IMG/VR virus record: IMGVR_UViG_3300031555_007106
DNA from: a virus
Taxonomy: Duplodnaviria; Heunggongvirae; Uroviricota; Caudoviricetes
Direction: 5' to 3' (one strand)
DNA: 64,000 bases
In this document: in pieces, positions 1 through 33,187 of the stretch
Position numbering within the stretch: position 1 is the first letter of the stretch
How the letters are laid out: every line of letters starts with the position of its first letter
Program-made: the position numbers and the translations under genes
The notes under the pieces: model-generated
What the model saw: only the letters and a program-made list of their open reading frames with translations
The model's database searches: none
What the model was told of the DNA's origin: nothing

Positions 1-3000
1 ATTTTAGGCGTTACAGAAGATAAATCAATATCCTTGGATATTGATATGTTAATCTCACCAGTTTCTTGATTTATTTCAGCTGTTTTACCAAGCACATCAA
101 ATGATGTGATATAACCGTCTTCAAGAGCAATTACTTTAACAGTAAAGGTTTCTGTTGTTCCCGCTTCAGATGTCACTGTATAAATAACATCTTTTGTAAA
201 ATCAAGTTTTTCGGCGATTGCAGGTTCAACCTTTGCAGCTCCTACGATTTCAAACTTATCAGGTGCAATATTTGTCAAATCTACACTGTTATCAAGTTTT
301 ACAGTTATAACGTTTTCTTCGTTATCAACATCACCCTTAACGCCGCTAAGAATAAAACTTCCAATAACAACATCACTTGTATGTACAGAAGCAAAAATCT
401 TTATATTATTTGCAGGCATCACAAATGTCATAGTTTGCAAATCAATTTCAACGGGATTTTCAGTATCAAGAACTTCTCGATTGCTTTCATTTACAACATA
501 GTTGTAATACCATACACGATTAACTTCCGTTGTTTCATCGATAGGCGTAACATTTACATTGATTTCGCTATTAGGAGCCGACGAAGGAACATTCGTGGTT
601 ATTTTTACAAATTCACTTTCATCATCTGTATCAATCACATATACATCGGCCCAAGTAGCATAGATGGTAACATCATTTGCCTCCATTGTTCTTGTCAAAG
701 GTTCTCCGATGACAAATTTAAGTTCTGTACTCTTTTCATTAATAATTTCCTCAAGCTTTGAAAGTCCATAGCCCGTTTCTGCCTCAGGGATAATTGTATA
801 TTTTTCCCCTTTCTGTATATAAAGATGTGTTTGAGGGAATATTTGATTAGCAGCACTTGTTACCTGCTCAATTTCATCCTGAATAACAGAACCTTTAATC
901 TCACCTACGCCATAACCTGTGTATGGTATATCAACACAATAATAAGGTTTTTCAGAAGAATTGTTGATAGTTCTTGTGTAAGATGTAAGAGGTCTTATTC
1001 CTGTAAACATAACTTTATCAATTTCAACGTTCTGTGAAATTTCTGAAAGAACATCTATGGTGTCATTATGTGCTACGGTGTAATTGTATGTACGAGTATC
1101 AGACGAGCCGTTATCAAGTATGTATGCGAATGCTCCTGTTGACTTCGCATTGTTATCATACACAAGTGTTAACCCATCAATCTTATGGACTGGAACATCG
1201 TACATAAAGTTAGCCTGTGTTTCGATGTTATAACCATTTCCACATTGAATAAAGCAGTCTGTAAATGCATTGGTATTTCCATTAACGGTTTCTGTATATA
1301 TTAATCCGGGTAAATACTGTTCTGCATTATAACGTGGGTCTTTCCACTCCACGGGAACTTCAAGTTCGAGAATGACGTTGTTTAAGTCACAGTACATAAA
1401 ATTGTTTAATGCCTGTGCGCTGCCACTTTTCTCTTCAAAAGAGCCTACGGCTAAAACGTTATCGATATCAACATTGTAACACTCAAAAGCTCGTGTCTTA
1501 ATATCTGTAAATGTTGTAACATCAGACAAGATACCATTCTTATAGTCAATCAGATATGTACACATTCCAAGAGAATCGTTGGCAAAGTTACCTGTGTTGA
1601 TAGACACGTCTGAAATAGCTCCATTTTCGAAAACACCAACAGCGTATTCCGCACTGTTGCCATAGAAATTGATGTTATTCATTTGTGTTGCAATAGTACC
1701 CTTACCAACACCATTTACGGCAGTTCCATACATATAGAAATTTGTTACGTTACAATTTTCGATTTCAGACAATCCGTTTTCAGAGTTCTGAAAGTTGTAG
1801 ACATCATTGAAATCTACATTATAAGCATTCACGCTTATTCCCTTTCCTGTAAGTTCATTGTCATATAAACGTATATTGCTTACTTTCATTCGGTTATCAT
1901 CCGCATAAAGTTTATAATAACCGCCACTTCCGTTATAAACACTTAAATTATCCTGCAAAACTGTAACTCCATCCGATTTAACAATATAGGCGAGGCCATA
2001 AATGCCGCTTTCATTTGTTACAGTTGAATCGGTAACATCTGTGTTATACAGATAATAACCTAAGTTGTTAACCGTCTGTCCGTTTTGTTTGCAGCCTGCA
2101 ATCATAGCTTTGCTACCATTAAGACCTGTACTAAAATGAACAATACCATTTTCTGCATAAGCTTCATTTGTTGAATTGTTGATATTGTTTGTATTCCATA
2201 CAGATATACCCGATGTAAGCTGTATTGTAGAATATGTATGTGTTCCATTGAACACATCTTCACCTGTCACAGAATAATCGGAAAGTTCACTATCAGATTG
2301 CTGGAAAGCATAGAGAACAGTAGGATACGGCATATTCGCATCATAATTGTAATTAACTGTTCTGCAAATGTCGTTTTCATCAATATCATTTCCACGCTGA
2401 TGCATATAAAATGACTGACTTGTAGGGTCACTTGCTTCGATATGCCAACGTAAACCTGTGGGGTTATATGTCATATCAGCAGCCCCGTATATAATACAAT
2501 CATTTGCATAGAATCCATTAGAGGTGTATGTTATCTGACCGATAGGCAACATATTGTTTATAACTTTATCTCGGTCTGTATACATACGCTCGACAACATT
2601 ACCTTTGTTTGAACAGCCTGATATTGTCCCTCTGTTTAAAACAGCAATGCCTGCAGCATTGTTTATTGTATTGCTCTGTGTAGAAAACAACCCATAAGCA
2701 TTATCAGGTCTGATATAACTTAGTGCATCAGCAGTATCAGAAGAATTTGTTAAATTACCGGTAATACGGGTAGAGGTATTATTCATAACAATAATAACCC
2801 CATTGTTCGTGCATCCGGAAATAATTCCATCATTTACAGCACATATACCGCCAACTGCTGTGTATCCATACACACCATACAGATGGTTTGCCGCTATTGA
2901 TTCCCCAATTTCAGTATTGTACTGAACAGGAATCCATGCTTCGCCTGATTCTGTTACACCTTGCAAGTTTGCCGCCATATAGTTTAACGAAGGCAGTTGG

Positions 3001-4742
3001 CCGTCATCACGCTTAGTAGAAACTTCGTAATTAAAGGAAGTCGGCAATGATTCGCTGGCGTAAAGAGGATACGCTTCAAGAAAAGGAAGGGCGAGATAAA
3101 CATATGGCATGCTCTGCTTATATGTTACAACTGAGTCTGTATACATATTAAAATCAGTTACAGTAGCCAGCGTTTCTTTATAAACAGATTCGTTTAAAGG
3201 ATTATACCATCCATTATTCATGCCTTGGTAAGAATAAGACCATTCATCCGTAATAAAATCGGTTTCGACCTGTTTAGTTGAAAAAGAAGCATTGTTTACT
3301 GAATTCCGAATTGTTCCTTTGTTTGTACAAGTCATAAAACCGAACTGTCTGTACGCCTGTGTAACAGAGCCATTTGTAACACAACCTTCTATTGTTCCTT
3401 CATTCCAAGCAGTAAGAAAACCAGAGTTACCTACTGGAAGGACTGTCCCAGCTGTTTCAGATAACTTATAAATGCTTGTTCCATAAGGACCGTAATCACG
3501 TGCTACAGGATATATGGATGTTACTAAACCCTGTTCCATATCACCGTAAACATAACAATTGCTTATTTCTCCGTAGTTATAAGCACATAAGAATGCACTG
3601 TACGATACAATATCATTTTTATTATACGAACCTTTGATATTTAAATTGCAGATTGAACCCGAAGTCCCGAGATAACCTACAAAACCTTTACCGATAGGGT
3701 CATAAGTTTCAAGACGCTCAATATAATCTTCGGTCCAAGGCGTATCAGGGTGTAATCCTTTTATACGACAATTGTTGCCATCAAATACGCCCATAAATCC
3801 TTCAGTATCAGCATATTCAGAAATGTCATCATAAGTATAGCTCGCAATAATATCGGTAGATTTTAACTCTTTGATAGCACTTACTTCATTATCTGAAATT
3901 AGATTATATTCACTAAGAGTTATGGGGTGTCCTTCAAGTGGGAGCTCCTGATTAGTAGTTGCTGCGCCGATAGGTGTGTACCAATGCTCAATATTTCCAT
4001 CAGGCAAACGATAAACTAAAAGTCCGTTCGTTACAGCATTCAACCCATTCATTTTATCATCAAGTGTATCTGACACTTGTTTGTAACGAGCTGTTATAGG
4101 TGTGCCATCTGATAATGTTGCTGTCGACCAGTCATACAAATATCTTTTATTGATTTCACCATTAAAGTTTACCCCATAGAGCAAATCTCTGAAACGCATT
4201 TCAGCCTCAGGAAGCTCATAATAACGAGTGGAAATCATATCACCTGTACTGCTACAACCGATAGTAGCATCGACTGGCGTAATGTCGGGAACGTGTCCCA
4301 GAGCATTATAATCCTCACTGGTTATGTTCGGTGTATCAAATGGATATGAGATTGGTAGCCAATCATAGCCATCTAAATCAATATCCGTATTAAGAGTAAT
4401 TGTTTTTCCTTCAAATGTATCTACTAATGCGAGATATTCTTCGGGCACGTTTTGTAATGTAGCAACAAAATCTGCATATTCTTCGCCTGATAGGTCGTTT
4501 GTGAGGATACTGAGAGCTGCAAGCTGAGCTGCACTTGAGATTGTAAAGTCTGTTTCGTTTGGCTTATACCAACTAAAATCATAGGTTACACCATCCCAAA
4601 CATTAAAACCACCAGAGTCAAAATCTCCATTGAAAGTTGTTGTTTCAGCAGACACCGTAATAGGAATTGAATTCAATGCCATAGCACACGCCAATAAACT
4701 CGCTATTCCTATTTTGACTCGCCTATTAAATTTTGTTTGCAT
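1..4742 (-). CDS. secreted surface protein, partial (>1580 aa; C-terminus beyond window start); signal peptide MQTKFNRRVKIGIASLLACAMALNSIPITVSA/ETT; beta-helix-like GxxNxG repeats and C-terminal Ig-like (Listeria-Bacteroides-type) repeats
   Basis: Hand translation of the minus strand from ATG at 4742 (RBS AAGGAGG 6 nt upstream) runs open to position 1 (checked at both ends). Absent from ORF track only because no stop lies in the window. Domain calls from motif patterns only. Confidence 0.65.
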   Translation of the reverse strand, partial: MQTKFNRRVKIGIASLLACAMALNSIPITVSAETTTFNGDFDSGGFNVWDGVTYDFSWYKPNETDFTISSAAQLAALSILTNDLSGEEYADFVATLQNVPEEYLALVDTFEGKTITLNTDIDLDGYDWLPISYPFDTPNITSEDYNALGHVPDITPVDATIGCSSTGDMISTRYYELPEAEMRFRDLLYGVNFNGEINKRYLYDWSTATLSDGTPITARYKQVSDTLDDKMNGLNAVTNGLLVYRLPDGNIEHWYTPIGAATTNQELPLEGHPITLSEYNLISDNEVSAIKELKSTDIIASYTYDDISEYADTEGFMGVFDGNNCRIKGLHPDTPWTEDYIERLETYDPIGKGFVGYLGTSGSICNLNIKGSYNKNDIVSYSAFLCAYNYGEISNCYVYGDMEQGLVTSIYPVARDYGPYGTSIYKLSETAGTVLPVGNSGFLTAWNEGTIEGCVTNGSVTQAYRQFGFMTCTNKGTIRNSVNNASFSTKQVETDFITDEWSYSYQGMNNGWYNPLNESVYKETLATVTDFNMYTDSVVTYKQSMPYVYLALPFLEAYPLYASESLPTSFNYEVSTKRDDGQLPSLNYMAANLQGVTESGEAWIPVQYNTEIGESIAANHLYGVYGYTAVGGICAVNDGIISGCTNNGVIIVMNNTSTRITGNLTNSSDTADALSYIRPDNAYGLFSTQSNTINNAAGIAVLNRGTISGCSNKGNVVERMYTDRDKVINNMLPIGQITYTSNGFYANDCIIYGAADMTYNPTGLRWHIEASDPTSQSFYMHQRGNDIDENDICRTVNYNYDANMPYPTVLYAFQQSDSELSDYSVTGEDVFNGTHTYSTIQLTSGISVWNTNNINNSTNEAYAENGIVHFSTGLNGSKAMIAGCKQNGQTVNNLGYYLYNTDVTDSTVTNESGIYGLAYIVKSDGVTVLQDNLSVYNGSGGYYKLYADDNRMKVSNIRLYDNELTGKGISVNAYNVDFNDVYNFQNSENGLSEIENCNVTNFYMYGTAVNGVGKGTIATQMNNINFYGNSAEYAVGVFENGAISDVSINTGNFANDSLGMCTYLIDYKNGILSDVTTFTDIKTRAFECYNVDIDNVLAVGSFEEKSGSAQALNNFMYCDLNNVILELEVPVEWKDPRYNAEQYLPGLIYTETVNGNTNAFTDCFIQCGNGYNIETQANFMYDVPVHKIDGLTLVYDNNAKSTGAFAYILDNGSSDTRTYNYTVAHNDTIDVLSEISQNVEIDKVMFTGIRPLTSYTRTINNSSEKPYYCVDIPYTGYGVGEIKGSVIQDEIEQVTSAANQIFPQTHLYIQKGEKYTIIPEAETGYGLSKLEEIINEKSTELKFVIGEPLTRTMEANDVTIYATWADVYVIDTDDESEFVKITTNVPSSAPNSEINVNVTPIDETTEVNRVWYYNYVVNESNREVLDTENPVEIDLQTMTFVMPANNIKIFASVHTSDVVIGSFILSGVKGDVDNEENVITVKLDNSVDLTNIAPDKFEIVGAAKVEPAIAEKLDFTKDVIYTVTSEAGTTETFTVKVIALEDGYITSFDVLGKTAEINQETGEINISISKDIDLSSVTPK

Positions 4743-4943
4743 AGGATTCCTCCTTATTTTATTAAAATGTTTGAACTTTTAAAATTTTTCTTCCATTAGG
4801 TAACATCGTGTATATCCATTTTCTCTTCTCTTTTCTTTTCTTTTGTTTATCAAATACTATGTCATATTTTCCGTCATGCATATTCCAAATCGAATGGTCG
4901 AAAATAAAATTTACCATATCTTTCACCTCTTTTTAGCGAATAA

Positions 4944-4971
4944 ACTCCCACCACCTTACAGTGATGGGAGT
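4944..4971 (-). terminator. candidate terminator hairpin downstream of the adhesin gene (11-bp stem ACUCCCAUCAC/GUGGUGGGAGU with one G-U; weak U-tract)
   Basis: actcccaccac-cttaca-gtgatgggagt. Minus-strand tail UUAUUCGC is only moderately U-rich. Confidence 0.45.
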
Positions 4972-5008
4972 ATTCAACTAAGATGTTATATTAACACGAA
5001 AACATCAA

Positions 5009-8000
5009 TTAACATATAATCTCTTCGTTTTCCTGTTCCTTCTTACGTTCAGAAACACCCTTCAACGCACTTGCTGCACAAGCGATACCGCTTATTGCAG
5101 CCATAGCAACGAATCCGGCCACGTTAAGAGGAGCACCAGTTTCAGGATTATCATCCTTCTTCTTCTCTTCCTCATCGTCGTCCGAAGGCGGCGTTGTTGT
5201 TGTCTCTTCATCGTCATCCGAAGGCGGTGTTGTTGTTATCTCTTCATCGTCGTCCGAAGGCGGTGTTGTTGTTATCTCTTCATCGTCATCCGAAGGCGGT
5301 GTTGTTGTAACAGGAGGCTTTGTATCACCGGGAGTTGTTATAACAACAGGAGGTCTTGTACCGCCGGGAGTTGTTGTAACAACGGGAGGTGTAGTATCAT
5401 CAGGTGTAGTAGTTACAACAGGAGCTGTAGTTTCTTCGGTCTTGTTATTTACAGCTGTAGGATATGTAGTAAAGTCTACGTCTGTGCCTACTACTCTGTA
5501 AAGAACTCTACCAGTTTCATCTACTGTACATCTGAATACCTTTTCGGATAATTCATATCCTGCAGGAGCAGAGATTTCCTTGATGTAACGTGTTACGCCA
5601 ACTTCAACAGCAAAAGATACAACTGCCATATTGTATGTGTCAGAGTCCTTATTACTATCAATCTTGGATGTATCTTCAGCAAGCTTAATTGTGCAAGCTT
5701 CATCTTCGTAAAGACCAAACTTAGCACCTTCAAGAGCCTTAGTACCATCAGTCTTGATTACCTTTGCAAAGTATTCAGCTTCGGAGTTTACACATACAGG
5801 GAATGTTTCGCTTAAATCAGCACCACTGTTATAAATGCGATAAGATGTCTTATTGTTAGCGTCAATTACGCATTCATAAACAGTATCCTTGATATTGTAT
5901 CCTTCGGGAGCAGAAGTTTCGCGTAAGTAATAAGTTGTGTTAGATGTAATACCTGTGGAGAATACTACAACAGCCTTGCCATTAGTAGAAGATTCTTCAT
6001 TTGTATCAATAGCAGATACTGCACTTGCTACAAACTGTTTACAACCTGCATCCTTATAGAGGGAGAATGTAGCACCTTCGAGAGGTTCGTTGCTGCCATC
6101 AACCTTAATAAGTCTAATTTCGTTGTATTCCTTACTGTTATGGAATGTTACAGGAATGTTTTCACCCTTGTAAAGTCTTTCAACAGCGACAGGTGCTACG
6201 GGGATATATTCTTCAAGTTCTTCTTCAGAAATTTCATAACTGATAAAGTTATTTTCTGAATCATAGATGGGAAGATTTTCGAGAGAAGCATAACCGTTGT
6301 TACCTGTTACCATTGTATAGGTATTGCCGTCAGAACCCTTTACATAGAATGTAATGCCTTCAACCTTGTCGTCATCAGCAGTCTTAATAATTTCGATACC
6401 ACCAACTTCTTCGTCAGTAAGCTTGTTTTCGAATTTAACGGTTACTGTGTCATCGGTCTTAAGTTCCTTTTTCTGTACAGGCAATTCATAATATCTGTTA
6501 GGAGTGCCTACTTCAGAAATTTCGTAAACAAGCTTATCGCCTGTTGCAGGGTCTACTGTAAGAAGGTCATTAATGACAATTTCACCATTAGCATCTGTAG
6601 CATAAGTACTGCTTAATACTTCGCCGGTGCTTAAAGTTGTCTTGACGTTGAAGACTACGTTTTCGATAACATTATCTTCTGCTGTCTTAACAATTTTAAG
6701 AGAGCCAAATTCGGACTTATCCTTATAGTTCTTAACATTTACAATAAGAGCAAGAGGACGTGTTTCGCCATCATATTCTTTTGCAATTCTTACATTATCA
6801 TAGTTGTCAACTAAATCGGATGTGCAGTTTGTGGTAAGAGTATAATGAGTATCGCCGTCTGCAATGTAAACGTAAATTTCTTCGTTAAGAAGTTCGTACG
6901 CATTACCCTCTTCATCTACAGGAGCCTTAGTTTCAACAATCCAATAAACATTGTCAAACATAAGGTCTGTAAAAGAAGCTACACCATTTTCATCTGTTGT
7001 TGCAGATGCAACAGCATTACCTGTTTTGTCGTCATAAAGGGTGAATTCAGCACCGGAAAGAATCTTACCTGTGTCTAAATCAGTCTTCATAACATCGAGC
7101 GAAGGAAGAGGAGTGGGAGTATTTTCGATGATAATCGGAATAAACTCTTCCTGACCTTCAACTACTGTTACAGGGAATACTTCTGTTGTTCTTATATAGC
7201 CGGAAGGAGCCTTAGTTTCTTCAATTTCATAATTGCCGGAAGAAACTGTATTAAATACTGCTATACCATATTCATCAGATGTAGCTGTAGCTACTGCTAC
7301 TCTACCACCTAAATCTGTAATCTGATAAAGAGTAAATACCGCTCCCTGAAGAGGAATATTATTGTTATCAACTTTCATTACAGAAAGCTTATTGGAAGAA
7401 CCTTTGTTTTCGATTTCAATTTCTACAACAGCTTCTTCATTACTTGAGAAAACAGGAACATCAACGATTGTTTCGTTATTTTCAGGTAATTCATAGCCAT
7501 AAGGAGCAGAAATTTCAACAAGCTTATACTTACCTGCACTGAGGTTATCAAATTCAACCTTACCATTAAGACCGGTATTTTTCTTTTCAACTACAATTTT
7601 CTTTTCGTTGCCATTAGCATCAAGCTGAATAAGCTTGAATGTTGCTCCGGCAAGAGTCTTACCTGTTTCATCGTCTTTCTTAATTACAACAATCTTTGCA
7701 GGCTGTGTATTTACACAATCAAGATTATAGTAATATTCATTTTCAACTTCGATAACTGTATTTTCTGTAATTGTAAAACGAATGGGGTCAGTTAATTTAG
7801 CATAACCCATAGGAGCCATAGTTTCAACAAGAACATATTCCTTGTTAAACGCAAGGTCTTCAAAAGCTACTTTACCATCAGACTTTGTTGTCTTAGAAGC
7901 GATAAATGAAGCACTTTCGCCCATTACATCAAATTCACTTGCCTCATAAAGCTTAAATGTAGCACCGTTAAGAGTTGCACCAGCTTCATTTTTCTTAGTG

Positions 8001-11000
8001 AGAATTAAAGTAGCATCTTTTGTAATGTTGTTAAAAGGTTTGCCGAGTTCATTACCTAAACCATCTTCATTGAGAGTAATATCTGTAATGGCTTCAGGAC
8101 GTCTATAGCGGTCAGGAACATCAATTTCAATGATGTTATACTTGATTAACTGGTCGTTTTTATCATATACGGGCAAGTCTTCAAATACTACAAGACCGTT
8201 TGCATCGGATTCTGCAATCTGAGAATAATCGCCATTCTGAGATTCGATTAAGAACTTAAAACCAGACTTATCGCCGTTATTCTCCACAGTGTCAAGAATA
8301 TCATCACACCACTTAACAAACTGATAATCTACTCTCTTAAGTTCGTTCTCAAACTCTACTTGTGTAACAGCTAACTCAGGTTCAAAATCGTCATTTACCT
8401 TAATCACAATTTCTACAGGGAACTGGTCTTTGTAACGAAGAGGAGTTTCTTCCTTTACTTCATAAACAATCTGAGCTGTACCCTTTGTGTTATAAACAGG
8501 AAGACGGTCAAGTTCGCCGTAACCTACAATTTCACCAGAGTTGTGATTTCTCTGTCTATAAACTGTAAGTGTGTATTCTTTTGTGGGGTCAATACCTGCG
8601 GGGTCAGTACCTGTAATTGTGAACTCGATACCATTTACTTCATCATCTTCACAATACTTAACGACACCAACAGCAGCTACGTTAATATAATTGTAGAACT
8701 GAGCCTTTTCTGTTTCGCCGGGAGTTACTGTAACTGTCTGGTCTGCACATAATTTATAATAAACATTTGTGCGTTCTTCGTGAATTGTGTATGTAGCGTA
8801 ATTTCCATCTACATCATAAGCGGGAATTTCTTCAAATAAAATTTCGCCGAATTTATCGGTAGCAAGTGTTTCTTCATAAATAGCAGCTTCGCCACCCTTA
8901 TGAATTACCGCCTTATCAGACTTGATTGTAAATTCAAAGCCTTCAATTACACGAGTTTCGGAGTCTTTTTCAATCTTGATGTTGCACCACCAAGGCTGAT
9001 ATACATTCTTGAATACATTTTCAGTGCTGTTAGACTTTGCTTTTTCAATTCTTTCTTCAAGAGTTGTATTAGCAATATCAACACTGATTGCTGCTACTTC
9101 ACAAGAAGGAACATAATCATCGCTCCAGTTACGATTCCAGAAATCAGGAGCTACTGTAGTTTCTTCAACGATATAAGCCCCAGTGGGAATCTTATCTACT
9201 ACAAGAGAGCCGTCTTCTGCAAGAATAAATTCTGTGGAACCTGCACCAGTGTATTCATAAATGCCCTTTTCGGTCATTGACGCACCGATGTATTCGCCTG
9301 TAGCTACGCTCTTAATCTTGAATTTGGAAAGGTTGATACCTGCTTCATATGCTTTTCCGTATTCCTTTTCGCTTCTAGCTGTAAGTCTGGTACGACCATC
9401 CTTATCAACGAACCACTTTTCAAGATATAAGATGCCATCGCCGTCAGCTTCGTTATTGAAGATGATGTGACCTTCTTCATCCTTTTCAAGCTCACTTGCT
9501 TCAAAGTTTTTACCTACATTCTTCTGATAACCAGCAGGAGCATTTATTTCCTTAATCTGATAATTCTCAAGATTACCGAGGAACACATTATCTTTAAAGT
9601 GAATGCTACCGTCGCTGCTAAGTACAAACTTTGTAGCATTATCTGCTACTCTGGTTGTTTCATCAGTAAATGTATATACTGTATAGCCGTTTTCATCGAT
9701 TTCGGAAGTTGCAATAACGTAAGCAATTTCATTCTTATCGAAGATAACAAACTCACACTGTTCGTAGTAAGAGGGGTCTGTTGCTTCCTGACCATCAAAT
9801 GTCTTTAAAAGTCCTGTGGGAGGAACCTGTCTTTCTTCTACATTAAAGCCGAAATCAAACATAAAAGGTCTGGGAACAATTGCTTCCTGTTCAGAAGCAT
9901 GAGTAAGACCAACTGCACCAAGGAACTTATCGATAGAACTATCGGCTGTTGTTACAACATCCTCAAGATTAAATACAACTCTTGTTTCGTCTTCTGCCCA
10001 TGTTTCAATCACATCAGCGGGAATATAAATTGTATAGTTGCCGTTGCGTTCACGGATGATGAAGTTGGAAGCGTTATCATCATCTTCAAAATAAGTTTGT
10101 AAAACAGATTTTTTGTATCCATTGCTATATTCGTCATCACGACTCAATCCCAGTTTCTTCAGACCATCAAAAATGGACTCTGCAAACTTAGCCTGAGCAT
10201 TTTCAGGAATCATATCAAAAGTGGTATCATATCTAATAGTAAAATGAGCATAGCTTGCTTCTTCACTATTTTTTACAAACACTAAACTAGAAGACTGAGT
10301 ATTATCAAAACGATTCATAAGCTCGTAAACCCAAGTTGTCTTTCCTGCGAGAGTTATCATGTTTGTCTTGATGTAGCTGTAAGTATTGATGATATCAGTC
10401 TTTTCATCTGCCTTAAAGTTAGCAAGAAAATAATTAAGAGCTGTCTTTTCATCACCCTTGATAGCTGCTGTGGAATCATCGTACCAACCGCAGACAATGT
10501 TCCAGATGATTAACTGAGTAGCAATTCTTGCTGCTGTGGTTTCACTTGTAGCAGTAAGGCTAACTTTTTTGTTTAATCCTTTAACACCTGCATTGACACT
10601 CTTTTCAATCCACTCTAACTGATTATTATGCCATGCATTTTCCTGCCACACATAAGTTAAATCTCCGGTTAAACCGCAAGAAAGAGCAAGGGAAATATTG
10701 TTGTAGATTGCATTGGTTGTTTCTGTTCCTTCTTCAAGATACTTACAAACTCCGTGAAGGTCTGTAACTTCTCCTAAGAAACCTGTAGCAGAATCCCAAT
10801 AAACTCCTGTGCTAATTCCTTCACTGGGAGCTACACAGTAAGCAATTTGACCTGTTGTTGTTTTTCCTGCCGTTGCTGGGTCATCGCTGTAATTCAAATA
10901 AGTATCATCAATAACAGACATCTTAACGATATTACCTGCTGCAACAGGGCCGATGCCTGTTGACGGAGACAAACCTGAATTCGCAAAGTTATACCCTGCA

Positions 11001-11161
11001 TTATAATCGTCCGTACCACCATGAAGGAAGTTTACGATTACTCTCTTTTTGTCGGTATCTTCGTATGTAGGGTAACTTGCAGCAAATGCACCTAACGTAG
11101 AAGATAGCGACATTACCCCGGCAAGCGAGGCCGCAATGAAGCTTTTTACACTTTTCTTCAT
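5009..11161 (-). CDS. sortase-anchored surface adhesin (2050 aa): signal peptide, N-terminal candidate thioester domain, many Cna-B/SpaA-type repeats (G[AT]xF[KST]LY), Thr/Pro/acidic stalk, C-terminal NPETG + hydrophobic segment + charged tail
   Basis: ORF track. N-terminus MKKSVKSFIAASLAGVMSLSSTLGAFAAS. C-terminus ...DDNPETGAPLNVAGFVAMAAISGIACAASALKGVSERKK. Repeated GATFKLY/GAVFTLY/GAEFTLY/GATFSLY/GAKFGLY segments. Confidence 0.85.
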   Translation of the reverse strand: MKKSVKSFIAASLAGVMSLSSTLGAFAASYPTYEDTDKKRVIVNFLHGGTDDYNAGYNFANSGLSPSTGIGPVAAGNIVKMSVIDDTYLNYSDDPATAGKTTTGQIAYCVAPSEGISTGVYWDSATGFLGEVTDLHGVCKYLEEGTETTNAIYNNISLALSCGLTGDLTYVWQENAWHNNQLEWIEKSVNAGVKGLNKKVSLTATSETTAARIATQLIIWNIVCGWYDDSTAAIKGDEKTALNYFLANFKADEKTDIINTYSYIKTNMITLAGKTTWVYELMNRFDNTQSSSLVFVKNSEEASYAHFTIRYDTTFDMIPENAQAKFAESIFDGLKKLGLSRDDEYSNGYKKSVLQTYFEDDDNASNFIIRERNGNYTIYIPADVIETWAEDETRVVFNLEDVVTTADSSIDKFLGAVGLTHASEQEAIVPRPFMFDFGFNVEERQVPPTGLLKTFDGQEATDPSYYEQCEFVIFDKNEIAYVIATSEIDENGYTVYTFTDETTRVADNATKFVLSSDGSIHFKDNVFLGNLENYQIKEINAPAGYQKNVGKNFEASELEKDEEGHIIFNNEADGDGILYLEKWFVDKDGRTRLTARSEKEYGKAYEAGINLSKFKIKSVATGEYIGASMTEKGIYEYTGAGSTEFILAEDGSLVVDKIPTGAYIVEETTVAPDFWNRNWSDDYVPSCEVAAISVDIANTTLEERIEKAKSNSTENVFKNVYQPWWCNIKIEKDSETRVIEGFEFTIKSDKAVIHKGGEAAIYEETLATDKFGEILFEEIPAYDVDGNYATYTIHEERTNVYYKLCADQTVTVTPGETEKAQFYNYINVAAVGVVKYCEDDEVNGIEFTITGTDPAGIDPTKEYTLTVYRQRNHNSGEIVGYGELDRLPVYNTKGTAQIVYEVKEETPLRYKDQFPVEIVIKVNDDFEPELAVTQVEFENELKRVDYQFVKWCDDILDTVENNGDKSGFKFLIESQNGDYSQIAESDANGLVVFEDLPVYDKNDQLIKYNIIEIDVPDRYRRPEAITDITLNEDGLGNELGKPFNNITKDATLILTKKNEAGATLNGATFKLYEASEFDVMGESASFIASKTTKSDGKVAFEDLAFNKEYVLVETMAPMGYAKLTDPIRFTITENTVIEVENEYYYNLDCVNTQPAKIVVIKKDDETGKTLAGATFKLIQLDANGNEKKIVVEKKNTGLNGKVEFDNLSAGKYKLVEISAPYGYELPENNETIVDVPVFSSNEEAVVEIEIENKGSSNKLSVMKVDNNNIPLQGAVFTLYQITDLGGRVAVATATSDEYGIAVFNTVSSGNYEIEETKAPSGYIRTTEVFPVTVVEGQEEFIPIIIENTPTPLPSLDVMKTDLDTGKILSGAEFTLYDDKTGNAVASATTDENGVASFTDLMFDNVYWIVETKAPVDEEGNAYELLNEEIYVYIADGDTHYTLTTNCTSDLVDNYDNVRIAKEYDGETRPLALIVNVKNYKDKSEFGSLKIVKTAEDNVIENVVFNVKTTLSTGEVLSSTYATDANGEIVINDLLTVDPATGDKLVYEISEVGTPNRYYELPVQKKELKTDDTVTVKFENKLTDEEVGGIEIIKTADDDKVEGITFYVKGSDGNTYTMVTGNNGYASLENLPIYDSENNFISYEISEEELEEYIPVAPVAVERLYKGENIPVTFHNSKEYNEIRLIKVDGSNEPLEGATFSLYKDAGCKQFVASAVSAIDTNEESSTNGKAVVVFSTGITSNTTYYLRETSAPEGYNIKDTVYECVIDANNKTSYRIYNSGADLSETFPVCVNSEAEYFAKVIKTDGTKALEGAKFGLYEDEACTIKLAEDTSKIDSNKDSDTYNMAVVSFAVEVGVTRYIKEISAPAGYELSEKVFRCTVDETGRVLYRVVGTDVDFTTYPTAVNNKTEETTAPVVTTTPDDTTPPVVTTTPGGTRPPVVITTPGDTKPPVTTTPPSDDDEEITTTPPSDDDEEITTTPPSDDDEETTTTPPSDDDEEEKKKDDNPETGAPLNVAGFVAMAAISGIACAASALKGVSERKKEQENEEIIC
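5164..5310 (-). repeat. 4 tandem copies of a 36-bp repeat encoding (I/T)TTTPPSDDDEE in the adhesin stalk
   Basis: ctcttcatcgtc[ag]tccgaaggcgg[ct]gttgttgtt[ag]t x4. Confidence 0.85.
5311..5420 (-). repeat. 3 degenerate ~36-bp tandem repeats encoding TTPGxTxPPVV Thr/Pro linker
   Basis: aggaggctttgtatcaccgggagttgttataacaac / aggaggtcttgtaccgccgggagttgttgtaacaac / gggaggtgtagtatcatcaggtgtagtagttacaac. Confidence 0.7.
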
Positions 11162-11402
11162 TTTGTTTACTCCTTTTCTGTTTTTCTTAGACGGAAAAAT
11201 CCGCCATTAATAGTATGATAGAATAAATCGAAAATAAAAAACATTCTATCACACATAGCTTACATATATAGTATGATAGAAAAAATGAAAAAAAGTAAAA
11301 CTTTTTCTTTTCTCACATATAGATTTTTAAATATACCATTATAATATATAATTCAAATGAGTTTGTTGCAATCAATACATTAATAACATATATTGAACGT
11401 TC

Positions 11403-11451: not shown

Positions 11452-12384
11452 TTACTTAATCTCAATCTTAATATTCGTTCTTTTGCCATCAGAAACCACT
11501 ACAAGATACACAGGACCTTTCTTCAAGCCCTTAACATACAGAGTACCCGACTTAGACTTAACAAGCTTAGCTCTTTTTGTGTTAGAAAAATAAACCTTAA
11601 CATCATCAGTGTTGTATTCTACAAGCTTATTAAGCTTTATTTTCTTCCCTACCGAAAGGCTTACAGAGGACTTATCGGTTATATCCTTATATTCATAAAG
11701 AGTTCCATCATTGTAGATTTGCATATCTTCCACAAAATTCTTAGGAGGAGAAGGTGGATTATTGATATCATATTCGGTTATACAAGGATTACTTCTTTTT
11801 TCTGTTGCCGAATATCCGTGTTTCTTAGCGAACTGAGCATCAGTCTTTAAAAACCAAACGTACTTATTGGGAGCACAGTCGCTCCAGCAAGCGTCCACAT
11901 TGTACCAGTTGTTATAAATGCGAACTTGGTTCCAATCGTGGCAAAGCTTTCCGCTTGACAAAGTTACGCAAGTTATATCACACTTCTCACATAAGTATTC
12001 GAGTGCATCGGCATACCCGGAACACACAGCCTTACCATTAACAAGACACCATTCCTTAGTAACTTCACCTTCATGTCCTAATAAAAGGTCTCCGGCATCA
12101 TCTGGCAGATATCCGCTTGGATACTTTCCATAGAAATCATAATCATATTCTACGCTATCAAGAACAAAATCATAGATAATCTTAAATCTTTTCCAAAGAT
12201 TATCTTCTTTATTTGCTTTCTTTACAATATCTTCAGTAAACTCTTCTAATTCATCTTTAGAATATTGTAATCTTTGTTTATGTGTCGAACCCTTAGCTAC
12301 GACTTCCGCACTCGCCGTCACACTCATCGCACTAAACATTGTAGTAACTGCCATAACAGCAGCGATTAACCTTTTAAATTTCAT
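11452..12384 (-). CDS. secreted transglutaminase-like cysteine-protease-domain protein with C-terminal Big_2-like Ig domain (310 aa from Met24 of the ORF)
   Basis: ORF 11452..12453. Start moved to MKFKRLIAAVMAVTTMFSAMSVTASA (signal peptide) at 12384 with RBS AAAGGAG 7 nt upstream. Cys-His-Asp pattern: KAVCSGYADALEY...CHDWNQV...NVDACW. C-terminus resembles Big_2. Confidence 0.7.
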   Translation of the reverse strand: MKFKRLIAAVMAVTTMFSAMSVTASAEVVAKGSTHKQRLQYSKDELEEFTEDIVKKANKEDNLWKRFKIIYDFVLDSVEYDYDFYGKYPSGYLPDDAGDLLLGHEGEVTKEWCLVNGKAVCSGYADALEYLCEKCDITCVTLSSGKLCHDWNQVRIYNNWYNVDACWSDCAPNKYVWFLKTDAQFAKKHGYSATEKRSNPCITEYDINNPPSPPKNFVEDMQIYNDGTLYEYKDITDKSSVSLSVGKKIKLNKLVEYNTDDVKVYFSNTKRAKLVKSKSGTLYVKGLKKGPVYLVVVSDGKRTNIKIEIK

Positions 12385-12641
12385 ACATATACTCCTTTCA
12401 AAAAGCATTAAAATTTTATTCTTACACCTATAGTATGATGGAAAATTTCCCAAATCAATAAACTTTTTGCGTTCTCACACACGATTTTTTAAAATTTTCT
12501 GTGTATCATTATATATTATAATAGTATATGTGAGGATTTTCTAAAGTTTTCTACCACATTATACCATATAAGACAATGCAAGTCAAGAAAAAAAGATATG
12601 TAAGAATTTACAGTATATATGAAGAAAAATAAAAAAATATA

Positions 12642-12670
12642 TTGACAAACTCCCGTAAATGCTGTATAAT
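12642..12670 (+). promoter_or_regulatory. perfect consensus sigma-70-type promoter TTGACA-17-TATAAT for the plus-strand operon (150-nt leader)
   Basis: ttgacaaactcccgtaaatgctgtataat. Confidence 0.75.
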
Positions 12671-12826
12671 GAATATCAACAAAACACACGTTTGTGTGAT
12701 AGATAGGATGTTTAAATTATGCAATTAATTAAATTACTTATCGAAGACGCTTATTCGTGAGAATAATAGCGCCTTTTTTAGTATATTTTAAAATTAACGA
12801 CATAATATTAATTAGGTGGGTTCAGT

Positions 12827-13198
12827 TTGAGCGATAAGTTAAAAGCTTTTATTCTTTGGGCGTCTACAATTTTAGTCCTTGCTGTAATTTTATTCACTTT
12901 TGTGATTCCTTTAATAGCATTGTTGGTATTTGCGGTATTTCTCCCTGATGTCGACACAGCGTCTCTTACGGAATTTTCACAAAATGTAAGTTCATTTTTA
13001 GGCTTTACGTCTGTTCTACTTGCGATATTTTCTGTATGGCAAGCTTATAAAGGTAATCAGGAGTTTGGCAAGATTGTAAATGAGTTGCAGAACTTAAAAG
13101 AAATCCAAACCGATTTAATCAGCGCCGTCAAACATTCTTCTGAGCTTTCTTCCGTACCTGCTCAAACCCCTATTTGGAAGAAAGACGAATCAAAATGA
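12827..13198 (+). CDS. small membrane protein (123 aa, two TM helices, C-terminal coiled-coil-like tail); TTG start
   Basis: ORF track. AGGTGGG RBS 5 nt upstream of TTG. Hydrophobic segments ILWASTILVLAVILFTFVIPLIALLVFAVFL and FLGFTSVLLAIFSVW. Confidence 0.55.
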   Translation: MSDKLKAFILWASTILVLAVILFTFVIPLIALLVFAVFLPDVDTASLTEFSQNVSSFLGFTSVLLAIFSVWQAYKGNQEFGKIVNELQNLKEIQTDLISAVKHSSELSSVPAQTPIWKKDESK

Positions 13199-13207
13199 GG
13201 TGATTTC

Positions 13208-13708
13208 ATGTGCATGAAATATATTAATGCTAATGTTTCGTTTTTTGAATCTATTTCTATCGAAAACAATATAGTAGCGAAAATGGAACGCTCTTTTGAT
13301 ACTATATTAGCTACTTCCAACGAAAAGGGAGAATACATTGTTTCGGATTTTTCGTTGTTCACTAGTTTAAATGTAATAGGCACCAATAATCCGGACGAAC
13401 AGAAAAATCATGTTTTACATCAAAAGGGTACTCTTAAAGTGATACTTAGGCTGACTAAATGCAGTACAGATGTTTCAAAACAACTTGGAGCTGATGTGGA
13501 TAGTTTTGAATTTGATTTTTCTAAGATAACTCCAGATATGGCTTGTTATCCTTTTTATTGTTTCACTCGTGTTACACATATGAATGGTATTAATGTCCCA
13601 GAACTAGGAGCATATGTAGTTAAAGTTTTGGTTAAAGATGATTTCACAGATGATTATACAATACAATCTATGCGACGATTAATTATAACTGATAAAATTT
13701 CTTCATAA
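13208..13708 (+). CDS. hypothetical protein (166 aa)
   Basis: ORF track. Follows previous gene by 10 nt with AGGTGA RBS. Ends at the bidirectional terminator. Confidence 0.55.
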   Translation: MCMKYINANVSFFESISIENNIVAKMERSFDTILATSNEKGEYIVSDFSLFTSLNVIGTNNPDEQKNHVLHQKGTLKVILRLTKCSTDVSKQLGADVDSFEFDFSKITPDMACYPFYCFTRVTHMNGINVPELGAYVVKVLVKDDFTDDYTIQSMRRLIITDKISS

Positions 13709-13714
13709 AAAAAA

Positions 13715-13752
13715 CAAAAAAACACAGTATCTTTGGATGCTGTGTTTTTCTT
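13715..13752. terminator. bidirectional rho-independent terminator (ends plus-strand operon 12827-13708 and a short minus-strand transcript)
   Basis: aaaaaaacaaaaaa-ACACAGT-atctttggat-GCTGTGT-ttttctttat: A-tract before and T-tract after the hairpin. Confidence 0.75.
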
Positions 13753-13845
13753 TATATGACAGTATAAATCAAGAAAAATTATATGTCTTATCTTGCTCTG
13801 TTTCATTCGGCCAAACAGTATTCATACATATCTCTTTCTGAGACC
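13715..13845 (-). ncRNA. candidate small RNA (~130 nt) from the 13852-13880 promoter to the shared bidirectional terminator; convergent with the plus-strand operon
   Basis: No ORF longer than 14 codons and no RBS. Internal hairpin CUGUUU-ggccgaaug-AAACAG. Confidence 0.35.
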
Positions 13846-13851
13846 ATGCTC

Positions 13852-13880
13852 GTTATACTACAGGTAGTCTCTGATGTCAA
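13852..13880 (-). promoter_or_regulatory. near-consensus promoter TTGACA-17-TATAAC on minus strand, divergent from the 13952 promoter; preceded by TCTATCATACTAT motif
   Basis: Minus strand: CATACTATAAGTAAAAAATATTGACATCAGAGACTACCTGTAGTATAAC. Confidence 0.55.
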
Positions 13881-13951
13881 TATTTTTTACTTATAGTATG
13901 ATAGAAAAAAATACAAGACTAAAAAAATTTTCAAATTTCTATCTTTTCCTA

Positions 13952-13980
13952 TTGACAAATTAGACTAAATCTGTTATAAT
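13952..13980 (+). promoter_or_regulatory. perfect consensus TTGACA-17-TATAAT promoter driving a ~70-nt terminated transcript
   Basis: ttgacaaattagactaaatctgttataat. Terminator at 14026-14059. Confidence 0.7.
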
Positions 13981-13986
13981 AATAAT

Positions 13987-14059
13987 AAGAGATGGTTATG
14001 TATGTTTTTATATACATACCAATTTAGTCCGTCTGCTCCGCAGATGGACTTCTTTTTTT
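13987..14059 (+). ncRNA. candidate small RNA (~72 nt): two stem-loops (GGUUAUGUAUG...AUACAUACC and terminator); only an 11-codon hydrophobic ORF (MVMYVFIYIPI) without usable RBS
   Basis: Consensus promoter + intrinsic terminator bracket a 70-nt non-coding stretch. No plus-strand gene downstream. Confidence 0.45.
14026..14059 (+). terminator. rho-independent terminator of a short plus-strand transcript
   Basis: AGTCCGTCTG-CTCCG-CAGATGGACT (10-bp stem, one G-U) followed by TTCTTTTTTTG. Confidence 0.75.
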
Positions 14060-14099
14060 GCTTTCACTTTCTTTGATTGCATCATTTCTCTGTTATTTA

Positions 14100-14340
14100 T
14101 AATCATTATTATTATAATCGACATCAATTTTATTAATTTTTGATGTCATTATCTTTCAGTTTTTAGACCTATAGCATCAAACAGTATTTTTCCACTATTT
14201 GACTACAACTTCACAATATCACAACTTGACATCAATTTTTAAATCACAATCTCAAAAACACTCCTATTTTGAGATTTACATTTCTATATTACAACATCAA
14301 TATCTCAATTTTGCTATATTTTGAGATTTATATGCAAAGA
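14100..14340. repeat. AT-rich non-coding block with palindromes (GACATCAA-12-TTGATGTC; AATCTCAAAA-9-TTTTGAGATT; ATCTCAA...TTGAGAT) and direct repeats (acaactt x2, tattttgagattta x2, (c)atcaa/atcacaa iterations)
   Basis: Read directly. Lies between convergent terminators at 14059 and 14340. Confidence 0.6.
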
Positions 14341-14378
14341 AAAAGAGGCCCTTCAAAGACCTCTTTTCTTTATTTTGC
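14340..14378 (-). terminator. candidate terminator ending the first minus-strand unit (downstream of 14381..14776)
   Basis: aaagAGAGGCC-cttcaaa-GACCTCTtttctttatttt: 7-bp stem with one mismatch, flanked by A- and T-tracts (bidirectional-looking). Confidence 0.55.
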
Positions 14379-14380
14379 TA

Positions 14381-14776
14381 TTATTGCTGGGTTTCCGCAG
14401 ATAAAATCTCATAAGCTTTTCTCAGCATATCCATATCAAAAAAACCGAAATGACAATCTTCGACGGAGATGCCGAGCTGCTTAGCAAGCTTTTTATATGC
14501 TTTGTTTCTTTTCTTTCTTCTCTCCCGAGGCTCTGAATCCTTCCATTTTAAATCGAATAAATCGTGGCACTTCTTCTTGAGTGTTCTCATTTCTTCATTG
14601 GAAAGAATTCCGTAAGCTTCATCAGGACGAGGTTCGTGTGTACCAACACGGGCACCGCAATTCGTACATAAGTACATTTTCCCACTTCCATAAGGTCTAC
14701 CGTATATTCTAGCATTGTCGGTGAATATAACTTCACCACCGCAAATGTTACATACAGTTGGTCTTAATTCAATCAC
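14381..14776 (-). CDS. zinc-ribbon protein (131 aa; GTG start); CxxCGG...C..CGA pattern, DUF3268-like
   Basis: ORF track. Motif CNICGGEV...YLCTNCGARVGTHEP. First gene of array after terminator at ~14340-14378. Confidence 0.6.
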   Translation of the reverse strand: MIELRPTVCNICGGEVIFTDNARIYGRPYGSGKMYLCTNCGARVGTHEPRPDEAYGILSNEEMRTLKKKCHDLFDLKWKDSEPRERRKKRNKAYKKLAKQLGISVEDCHFGFFDMDMLRKAYEILSAETQQ

Positions 14777-16706: not shown

Positions 16707-16956
16707 TTCCGGAATCTCCTTCCATAACAGGATTAAAGAAATTGATACAGTCTGCTGCAGATACAACAATTACTGCAGGACAGAAATTCATAACCATACC
16801 CTGATGAATGTCTTCTGCTACGGTCTTTGTGAACTTCATAGCGGGCTTGCCGGGTTCACATAAAAATGACTTTGTAGTGTTGTTAATCTTAGTAACATAA
16901 GATAAGCTACCATCATCAGATACAACAGCTAAAAAATAATCATACTTCTTTCTCAT
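16699..16956 (-). CDS. hypothetical protein (85 aa); first gene after cassette 1
   Basis: ORF 16699..17013. Its first 19 codons (MTTGVLKNCYYFIMKGKLI) are cassette sequence. Real start MRKKYDYF, preceded by AAAGGAAAA. Confidence 0.6.
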   Translation of the reverse strand: MRKKYDYFLAVVSDDGSLSYVTKINNTTKSFLCEPGKPAMKFTKTVAEDIHQGMVMNFCPAVIVVSAADCINFFNPVMEGDSGNE

Positions 16957-17096
16957 AATTAATTTTCCTTTCATAATAAAATAATAGCAATTCTTTAAAA
17001 CTCCAGTCGTCATAAAATAATTGCTATTTATAGTATGGTAAAAAAGCTGTAAAACAAAAAAGCCCGCCGTAGCGAGCCTTTTTCTTTGTTTTGCTA
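16957..17096 (-). repeat. terminator-promoter-RBS cassette copy 1
   Basis: Matches ~130-bp consensus (minus orientation): TAATAGCAATAAC-AAAGAAAAAGGCTCGC-TACG-GCGGGCTTTTTTG-TTTTAC-GCAAACTTTATCATACTAT-TAGTAGCAATTATTTT-ATGACGACTGGAGTTTTAAAG-AATTGCTATTATTTT-ATTATGAAAGGAAA-N-ATG. Confidence 0.85.
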
Positions 17097-22799: not shown

Positions 22800-23300
22800 T
22801 TAACCCATTGGTCCATAACTTTGATTTTCAATTCTTGCCAACTTTAAACGCATCTCATACGCTTCTTGGTCTCTTTCGTTCATCCTTTTCCGAAGACTAT
22901 CTCTATCTTCTATCAAAGCATAGATATGCTGAACAGCTCTTCTTAAACCATCAACATTAGCAGGTAAAAGACCTATCGGAGACTGAACGTATTTTAAAGA
23001 TTCATCATTTTTCGCCGTCGATGAAAAAGGAAATTCATCGTTCACCTCAATATCGCTGAAACCCATCAATACGTGAAGACGATAATCATTCATAGCATCG
23101 TCAAGCGTTTCATTCCATTTGTTACAGTTGTCAGGGATATATCCTGTTTCTGTATCGACAACGCAAAAAGCGAAGAAATATTCACTATTTGGCTTATCAA
23201 GCTTGAATTTATGAAAATCCACATAAATACTCCCCGCATTTCCATCGGGAAGACATTCGACAACAACAGGTGTAATTTCATATCTTTCATCAACTTTCAT
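22800..23300 (-). CDS. hypothetical protein (166 aa); first gene after cassette 2
   Basis: ORF track. AAAGGAAA RBS from cassette. Confidence 0.65.
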   Translation of the reverse strand: MKVDERYEITPVVVECLPDGNAGSIYVDFHKFKLDKPNSEYFFAFCVVDTETGYIPDNCNKWNETLDDAMNDYRLHVLMGFSDIEVNDEFPFSSTAKNDESLKYVQSPIGLLPANVDGLRRAVQHIYALIEDRDSLRKRMNERDQEAYEMRLKLARIENQSYGPMG

Positions 23301-23441
23301 AATATTTTCCTTTCATTAATAAAAATAATAGCAATCTATAACTCCAGTCGTCATAAAATAATTGCTACTAATAGTATGATAAAGTTTGCGTAAAACAAAA
23401 AAGCCCGCCGAAGCGAGCCTTTTTTTCTTTGTTATTGCTTA
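23301..23441 (-). repeat. terminator-promoter-RBS cassette copy 2 (UUCG-loop terminator variant; 3-nt shorter spacer)
   Basis: aaaaataatagcaatctataactccagtcgtcataaaataattgctactaatagtatgataaagtttgcgtaaaacaaaaaagcccgccgaagcgagcc... Confidence 0.85.
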
Positions 23442-27066: not shown

Positions 27067-27420
27067 TTACGTTAAAACGTTTATTAGACAGATAGCTTGT
27101 CTCTCAGCCTCTTCTTCCGAATCATACAATCTTATCTGATTATTCATTTCTTCGCAGCCCATCTGCTCAAAAATGCACTCAGCGATAACACCGTTAGCTT
27201 CATCACCATACTGTTCTCTGATTTCCGATACACTATCATAATATCCCGAAATATATCTGTAGATATCATCTTCAGAATATTCTTCAAGAGAAATGGTAGC
27301 TTCAACAACATAATAACCGTCAGGATAATCGCGAACTTCAACTAACTGAAATTCAGTAGAGTTGAGGTCTCGGCGCCACTGAAGGTCATCTGTTCTTATC
27401 CATCCTCTGGGTAATTTCAT
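27067..27420 (-). CDS. acidic hypothetical protein (117 aa); first gene after cassette 3
   Basis: ORF track. Confidence 0.6.
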   Translation of the reverse strand: MKLPRGWIRTDDLQWRRDLNSTEFQLVEVRDYPDGYYVVEATISLEEYSEDDIYRYISGYYDSVSEIREQYGDEANGVIAECIFEQMGCEEMNNQIRLYDSEEEAERQAICLINVLT

Positions 27421-27553
27421 ATTTATCCTTTCCTTTCATAAAAATAAGCAATAATTTTTAAACTCCGTTCATCATAAAAATATTGCTATACATAGTATGG
27501 TAAAAAAGCCATAAAACAAAAAAAGCCCACCGAAGTGAGCTTCTTTATTGCTA
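27421..27553 (-). repeat. terminator-promoter-RBS cassette copy 3 (divergent; terminator stem carries compensatory GCUCAC/GUGGGC change)
   Basis: ...aaactccgttcatcataaaaatattgctatacatagtatggtaaaaaagccataaaacaaaaaaagcccaccgaagtgagc... Confidence 0.8.
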
Positions 27554-32830: not shown

Positions 32831-33187
32831 TTACTCTTTTGATAAACTCTGAAGAGTTTGCCAATACGGCATTACGCACTTTTTGAGGTAGCCGCATTCG
32901 TCAATATCAATGTAAGCCTCATTGCCGGATTTGATATCCCCTTCAGACAAGCCCCACAGCATATCGGTGAAGAACAATTCTAAAAGAGGAGATTCAATAT
33001 CAACCAATGTATACCAGATGTGTACGAGAGGTTTAATTGTATCACTACAACTTTCTTCAGTAGGTTCACCGAACGCTGCCACAGTTTCAGGAAATCTTTC
33101 TTTAAATTCTTCAACTGTTAAAGCATATCGTTTGTAGTATCCCTTATAGTTCTCTTCAACAATTACTGCTTTAATGTTTTCTGCCAT
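32831..33187 (-). CDS. hypothetical protein (118 aa); first gene after cassette 4
   Basis: ORF 32831..33205 begins in the cassette RBS (ATGAAAGGAAAG). Start moved to MAENIKAVIV. Confidence 0.6.
   Translation of the reverse strand: MAENIKAVIVEENYKGYYKRYALTVEEFKERFPETVAAFGEPTEESCSDTIKPLVHIWYTLVDIESPLLELFFTDMLWGLSEGDIKSGNEAYIDIDECGYLKKCVMPYWQTLQSLSKE

Follow-up and report, generated by a model that had tools for sequence, protein, structure and literature searches.

Among the described systems closest to the locus studied here are the plasmid countertranscripts and type I antitoxin small RNAs, such as pT181 RNAI, pIP501 RNAIII, par RNA II and RatA/SR4. In p576, a plasmid of the pLS20 family, a strong promoter flanked by repressor sites, termed EGeRS, is placed before several variable-gene operons (PMC8708921). 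Frpo and ssi are single-stranded-DNA promoters, as credited to Masai and Arai (1997) in PMC11541004.

The locus to be compared with these systems is a gap of 672 bp between two gene blocks (13709-14380) in a window of 64 kb, by which we mean the whole stretch of DNA that was analysed. A first-pass annotation had placed two divergent promoters in this gap, each driving a short, terminated transcript, and had suggested a pair of regulatory small RNAs or a control region at the boundary between the blocks. The coordinates of all the elements it named were borne out by reading of the sequence and by promoter and terminator scans, and the position of the promoter pair between the gene blocks is likewise supported. 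The proposed small-RNA pair survives only in part: one short, terminated unit stands on the plus strand, while the minus-strand unit looks like an orphan gene start with a defective -10 hexamer. Our preferred interpretation, tentative and at rather less than even confidence, is that two promoter-plus-leader units without genes occupy this module junction, and not a designed pair of small RNAs.

The gap and its setting

The window is identical to part of the 193-kb JGI metagenome contig Ga0307249_10001143, and the other contigs carrying the region are all 99.97-100% identical. The contig is present in the samples JGI 3300029305, 3300029705 and 3300018494/5 and ENA ERZ272483xx, and the element in goat-gut enrichment cultures. 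To the right of the gap, a one-directional minus-strand array of small, mostly uncharacterised genes begins at 14381, takes up the rest of the window and continues for at least another 10 kb, with DNA methyltransferases, DUF4942, DUF3268, DUF5983, DUF3848 and thymidylate kinase as recognisable families. To the left lies a counter-oriented two-gene operon (12827-13708, plus strand), followed further left by a minus-strand operon for a transglutaminase (TGase)-like lipoprotein and giant proteins of 2050, 1797 and 2691 aa (window 1-11161 and L026 15407-23482), beyond which array-type leaders resume (L026 23869). All three giant proteins carry a signal peptide, and the C-termini of the 2050-aa and 2691-aa proteins comprise NPETG or VPTG, a membrane-spanning stretch and a charged tail; because these tails resemble sorting signals, we take them to be cell-wall-anchored proteins of a Gram-positive host. 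The domains found in the giant proteins are SpaA, Cna_B, a weak thioester-domain match and DUF5018. An actin-like partition gene accompanies their homologues in L027, a relative reached via the 1797-aa protein at ~50% identity (NCBI assembly GCA_965342445.1); in L028 and L030 the accompanying genes are for a D5-type primase, an SNF2 helicase and an FtsH-like protease. Neither the window nor its ~10-kb flanks on the 193-kb contig yielded a relaxase, T4SS or oriT-associated family. Across the window and about 10 kb on each side, the only counter-oriented units are the plus-strand RNA of the gap and the 12827-13708 operon, both driven by perfect host-type promoters. In our view, transcription modules of a large and as yet uncharacterised mobile element of Gram-positive bacteria meet at this gap.

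The operon at 12827-13708 encodes a small membrane protein of 123 aa with a weak 7tm-like match, followed by a 166-aa protein, and the two form a mobile module (L014-L022) whose settings include an ICE with integrase, ParA/ParB and SSB as well as capsule loci. The 166-aa protein has the invariant N-terminus MCMKY and was modelled as a generic Ig-like beta-sandwich (pLDDT 93.8), with no informative structure match and no PADLOC match. Synteny via this protein (37 homologues) was set aside, as the module moves among unrelated contexts and the DNA downstream of it is not conserved. Synteny via the DUF3268 protein was equally unproductive, as the genome collection contains no relative and the JGI metagenomes a single one (L023), where the array is a different, phage-like one with no similar unit. 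Several independent metagenome contigs start or end at 13837, 13919-13920, 14404 and 14434. Recombination breakpoints were weighed as an origin of the ends at 13837, 13919 and 13920 and set aside. The local repeat there is far shorter than the assemblers' 141-mers, and low read coverage of this very AT-rich stretch may lie behind the contig ends.

The plus-strand unit

The features of the ~670-bp gap are listed below, with the evidence for each in brackets.

13718-13749, unstranded: bidirectional intrinsic terminator common to the plus-strand operon 12827-13708 and the minus unit (terminator scan, fold)
13769-13839, minus strand: SD-like GAAAGAGA and ATGTATG, then an 18-codon ORF, MNTVWPNETEQDKTYNFS, at 13825-13769 (local alignment, sequence)
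13852-13880, minus strand: TTGACA-17-TATAAC, the minus promoter of the first-pass annotation (sequence)
13892-13910, minus strand: element promoter box TTTTTTCTATCATACTATA, with the core CATACTAT at 13900-13893 (motif scan, alignment)
13916-13921, plus strand: central copy of AGACTA, a candidate operator (motif count)
13952-13980, plus strand: perfect sigma-A/sigma-70 promoter, TTGACA-17-TATAAT (sequence, scan, shuffle counts)
13987-14059, plus strand: predicted RNA of ~72 nt, consisting of 5' AAGAGAU, hairpin 1, terminator hairpin and U run (fold, terminator scan)
13992-14027, plus strand: mini-ORF of 11 codons, MVMYVFIYIPI (sequence and predicted structure)
14101-14335, unstranded: non-coding repeat cluster with four ACATCAA and six ATC[AT]CAA, direct and inverted (motif count)
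14341-14367, unstranded: terminator hairpin closing the minus-strand gene array after the DUF3268 gene at 14381-14776 (fold, z = -3.8)

The plus-strand promoter combines TTGACA (13952-13957) and TATAAT (13975-13980) across a 17-nt spacer, with the TG of an extended -10 at 13972-13973, two bases 5' of TATAAT, and an A/T-tract 5' of the -35 at about 13920-13951. Perfect promoters exceed chance, with two in the 64-kb window compared to 0.03 expected from shuffles, and the second one lies at 12642-12670 on the plus strand, as reported. When up to one mismatch was allowed, six TTGACA-17-TATAAT sites were observed in the window versus 1.26 expected, four of the six falling inside 12558-13980.

The RNA made from this promoter is predicted to form a first hairpin of 12 bp with one bulge (13993-14021) and a terminator hairpin of 11 bp, six of them G-C (14026-14050), followed by TCTTTTTTT (U run at 14051-14059), which confirms the two hairpins and the intrinsic terminator (14026-14059) described earlier for this strand. 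The terminator sits 40-72 nt from the predicted start, and the fold of 13987-14060 amounts to -28.9 kcal/mol compared to -10.2 +/- 2.7 for shuffles (z = -7.0), with nearly all bases paired and no accessible pairing surface. The mini-ORF has a weak SD and start codons buried in the 12-bp hairpin 1, and its stop codon, UAG, reaches into the base of the terminator stem. The absence of a plus-strand gene 3' of the unit also held against the ORF list of the gap: inspection by eye showed no convincing SD for the ORFs of at least 20 aa in 13709-14380, which lie in low-complexity sequence rich in A and T, plus-strand ORFs of at least 100 aa past 14059 all overlap minus-strand genes and are uncalled where gene calls exist, and the convergent terminator of the array at 14341-14367 comes next. 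With its own promoter, its own intrinsic terminator and no convincingly translated ORF, the plus unit is, judged by its sequence alone, a credible stand-alone transcription unit and apparently non-coding.

Two sets of short repeats surround the unit. AGACTA occurs in both promoter spacers in the same register (13962-13967 on the plus strand, and 13865-13870 as plus-strand TAGTCT) as well as at the central position, and since three of its 12 window copies cluster within about 100 nt at the divergent promoters, it is a possible operator; that the trio may be sites for a shared repressor is speculative. The 235 nt past the plus RNA at 14101-14335 contain 10 of the 58 window copies of ACATCAA or ATC[AT]CAA, which suggests a protein-binding array and may represent iterons, a centromere or a regulator-binding array.

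Rfam 15, searched over the whole window, gave no family at the gathering threshold and none for either RNA, the best sub-threshold match of the plus RNA being MicF (27.2 bits versus a threshold of 79, E = 0.3). The idea of a CRISPR-repeat mimic was discarded, with no match to Rfam CRISPR repeats (if in the release) at E up to 10. An accessibility-corrected pairing scan of the plus RNA against the 10 cassette leaders, the 12827-13708 operon, the adhesin and TGase leaders and the minus unit reached at best -1.7 kcal/mol, equal to control windows, and an uncorrected scan did no better than shuffled RNAs, both scans being crude. The suggestion of a control RNA for the island is thus not supported, neither by an Rfam family nor by pairing better than controls. 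Relatives of the plus RNA other than identical copies were found in none of the searches of PLSDB plasmids, INPHARED phages, IMG/VR, genomes and metagenomes; blastn against plasmids and phages gave chance matches only, and pattern scans for the unit returned nothing in viral contigs (four scans) or genome contigs (one scan).

Comparable combinations of promoter and RNA were found at 12642 and in L027 and L030. In the 12642 unit (plus strand), a leader of 150 nt separates the perfect promoter from the 123-aa and 166-aa genes; it has a hairpin at its 5' end and another, terminator-like one with a U-run (about 12745-12787), ~40 nt short of the SD of the 123-aa gene. The fold of this leader is not significant (z = -1.0), and from its layout it may be an attenuator; in distant homologues of the module, the leader (12642-12826) is not conserved. 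The L027 unit (1903-2046, plus strand) has a perfect promoter at 1903, ~105 nt of leader, a terminator at 2014-2035 and, after a further 220 nt, a 111-aa gene; no second promoter-like site intervenes. In L030, a more distant relative, a perfect minus-strand promoter at 5566 (unit 5415-5566) gives a two-hairpin RNA of ~100 nt (z = -7.7) that stops in a convergent gene's terminator; no gene belongs to this unit. None of these units has significant sequence similarity to the plus RNA. Homology to the L027 unit, considered for a common AGAGATGGT[AT]AT motif, was rejected, as 83 of 2000 shuffles equalled the score and other L027 windows score higher. The 12642 and L027 units argue for a terminated gene leader, whereas L030 argues that gene-less units recur.

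The minus-strand unit and the element-wide promoter box

On the minus strand, TTGACA (13880-13875) and TATAAC (13857-13852), 17 nt apart, lie at the expected position and face the bidirectional terminator at 13718-13749, as described. The description of this promoter needs a correction: TATAAC lacks the final T of the -10 hexamer, one of its two most important bases. The promoter is also absent from the promoter-scan list, because the scan requires a T at position 6 of the -10. TTGACA-17-TATAAC sits inside a leader that begins at the element promoter box at 13892-13910, a third promoter-like box that the first-pass annotation had missed, located 12 nt upstream of the minus TTGACA.

The 19-nt core of this box is identical at all 19 positions to the adhesin promoter copy at 11267-11285. 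Local alignment of the minus unit with the promoter regions of the TGase-like and adhesin genes was matched by 6 and 3 of 1000 shuffles, respectively, and alignment of its SD and ATG segment GAAAGAGATATGTATGAA with the TGase-like GAAAGGAGTATATGTATGAA (12350-12429) by 2 of 1000. The shuffle test shows that the minus unit is paralogous with the 5' end of the TGase-like gene. After the second ATG, the minus unit has only 18 codons, followed by the bidirectional terminator. As box, leader, SD and ATG resemble the TGase-like 5' end, the unit reads most simply as a gene start minus the gene, and it looks like an orphan gene start and not a purpose-built small RNA. We infer that it is transcribed; the transcript, for which the predicted fold is unremarkable (z = -2.7), would be a by-product or at most a tiny ORF. 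A view of the two promoters as paralogous divergent units was rejected on shuffle tests.

The box is specific to the element and, with the invariant core CATACTAT, is present in 14 intergenic minus-strand copies in the window, two of them upstream of the 2050-aa gene, one upstream of the TGase-like gene, 10 in array leaders and one at 13892-13910. Thirteen of the 14 lie upstream of a gene start in the correct orientation, and the distance from box to gene start is 40-120 nt for 13 of 14 copies in the window and for all six in L027. The exception is the copy at 13892-13910, the sole one with no gene start downstream. In the form T[TC]ATCATACTAT[AT], the box is seen upstream of the adhesin and TGase-like genes (window 11195-11307 and 12429-12469), and the L027 copies lie upstream of six genes (1797, 2942, 6057, 7448, 9930 and 23675). 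With no -35 at a fixed distance, the box resembles an extended -10 and may be a variant of it or a promoter for an element-specific factor.

At least 13 leader units of ~140 nt divide the minus-strand array into operons:

16951-17090, 23292-23431, 27413-27552, 33180-33319 and 36151-36264, minus strand: array leader units
38056-38187, 43949-44088, 49305-49444, 51990-52129 and 57982-58121, minus strand: array leader units in the rest of the window
about 975-1095, 5420-5540 and 8080-8200 of L024, minus strand: array leader units in the next 10 kb

Each is ordered as a terminator (GGCTCGCTxCGGCGGGCTTTTTT), the CATACTAT box, an inverted repeat and an SD, the inverted repeat TAGCAATT-N26-AATTGCTA forming a 5' hairpin or an operator. 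Box and leader apparently define a regulon of more than a dozen operons, and this element-wide box with its repeated leader is a more informative by-product of the analysis than the hairpin RNA.

Readings of the gap and comparison with known systems

Under the interpretation of two gene-less promoter-plus-leader units, the box at 13892-13910 would start a minus-strand transcript that runs through the TGase-like leader, SD and ATG, meets only the 18-codon ORF and then reaches the bidirectional terminator. On the plus strand, the perfect host-type promoter would make the tightly folded ~72-nt RNA, which would stop at the strong terminator. The plus unit would be of the same design as those at 12642 and L027:1903, with promoter, early-terminating leader and same-strand gene, except that the gene is missing, and could be described as an orphan attenuator-type leader that still fires and terminates. 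Several observations weigh against an orphan leader: no trace of a lost gene was seen downstream of 14059, the leader at 12642 lacks a significant fold, the comparable units have no significant similarity in sequence, and the gene-less unit of L030 favours a function for the RNA itself.

Such a function is what the strongest rival proposes. It is possible, though in our view somewhat less likely, that the plus unit is an autonomous small RNA gene, expressed constitutively at a high level from the perfect promoter. The self-contained arrangement of promoter, RNA and terminator with a fold at z = -7, the lack of a downstream gene, the mini-ORFs without a convincing translation signal and a unit in the distant relative L030 that is built alike and also lacks a gene all fit this proposal; the lack of an Rfam family, of relatives in the plasmid, phage, viral, genome and metagenome searches and of any target above chance, together with the non-significant similarity to the L027 unit, do not. 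Because the RNA is almost fully paired, base pairing would not be its mode of action; it would bind a protein, serve as a decoy, or act as a convergent transcriptional roadblock where the array ends. For the plus unit we rank an orphan terminated leader slightly above an autonomous small RNA, a choice made by analogy, and neither unit in the gap can be shown to be a regulatory RNA. A perfect promoter with a terminator can be an orphan leader at a module junction, and such signals should therefore receive a small-RNA label only with expression or conservation data.

A more far-reaching proposal, which we consider improbable, is that the perfect promoter with its two-hairpin, terminated, gene-less RNA, here and in L030, represents a recurrent class of decoy RNAs that sequester proteins or counter defence and that the host polymerase makes immediately upon entry, and that the AGACTA-marked divergent region is a control point for the at least 13 operons with repeated leaders. 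Should the 72-nt RNA be functional, it would provide a first handle on the regulation of a very large, unstudied mobile element of at least 193 kb, almost entirely one-directional, with mostly uncharacterised genes and giant cell-wall-anchored adhesins.

We consider it quite improbable that either RNA, minus or plus, regulates a toxin-like or operon mRNA in cis as an antisense transcript, as type I antitoxins and plasmid countertranscripts do. The 3' ends of the minus RNA and the 12827-13708 mRNA are complementary over ~35 nt through their common bidirectional terminator, and the first gene of that operon is a small membrane protein, as this explanation would have it. The overlap is, however, confined to the terminator, as in any convergent pair, the two-gene module is found elsewhere without such an RNA, and neither strand of 13709-14380 has a Rep or hydrophobic toxin-like ORF overlapping the RNAs. 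Neither PADLOC nor NCBIfam gave a match pointing to a toxin, and no Rfam family, antitoxin and countertranscript RNAs included, was matched at threshold. A 39-aa minus-strand ORF (14008-14127) was rejected as a type I toxin, since it lacks an SD and its hydrophobic run, in AT-rich sequence of low complexity, is short.

Very doubtful, too, is a function of the short ORFs as leader peptides or micro-proteins (11 or 24 codons on the plus strand, 18 on the minus). SD-like AAGAGA or GAAAGAGA lies 5-9 nt 5' of ATG in both units, and the stop of the plus mini-ORF abuts the terminator stem, which is the geometry of ribosome-mediated attenuation. Against this, the start codons are sequestered in the 12-bp stem, the weak SD lies at the very 5' end, there is no gene for an attenuator to control, and the peptides have no features of known signalling or toxin peptides.

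We give the least credence to the promoters being arms of an imperfect inverted repeat through which transferred single-stranded DNA would fold into an Frpo/ssi-like promoter for priming RNA synthesis or early transcription: the arms 13853-13882 and 13950-13979 are 70% complementary (13820-13839 and 13987-14004, 76%), the plus-strand DNA fold has z = -2.7 (minus strand -1.7) with an MFE structure that pairs the arms, and the context is like an establishment-gene array, but arm similarity was no better than in shuffles (151 of 1000, or 368 of 1000 with the hexamers kept), the long hairpin has an ensemble frequency of ~0 with only 7-8 of its pairs retained in the centroid, the array leaders' own box is not in a stem, and the contig stretches examined hold no relaxase, oriT or T4SS gene.

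Set beside Frpo and ssi, the gap similarly has consensus -35 and -10 hexamers in two inverted-repeat arms by a one-directional array of small genes and methyltransferases; it differs in that its hairpin does not appear significantly stable, the hexamers account for the likeness of the arms and an oriT or relaxase context is lacking in the stretches examined. With the plasmid countertranscripts and type I antitoxins, the plus RNA shares the mobile-element setting, a strong constitutive-type promoter, a length within 50-150 nt, one or two hairpins and an intrinsic terminator, whereas it has no overlapping sense transcript, rep gene or toxin ORF. The likeness to terminated leaders and attenuators of Gram-positive bacteria lies in the strong promoter, the short structured RNA, the terminator within 100 nt and the mini-ORF ending at the terminator foot. 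Unlike these, the plus unit has no downstream gene, no visible antiterminator fold and no recognised ligand- or protein-binding motif, with no riboswitch or T-box match in Rfam.

The promoter-containing repeats of the array, finally, precede many operons of variable small genes in a Gram-positive mobile element, as do the EGeRS2-type elements of p576 and the pLS20 family (PMC8708921). The sequences are unrelated, at least 13 copies are present here as opposed to four, no TTATCCC dual motifs stood out by eye among the leaders, and a Reg-like repressor was not identified. For this element, known here from sequence and only putatively conjugative, the EGeRS of the pLS20 family nonetheless appear, by analogy, to be the systems to which the array leaders are closest in kind.
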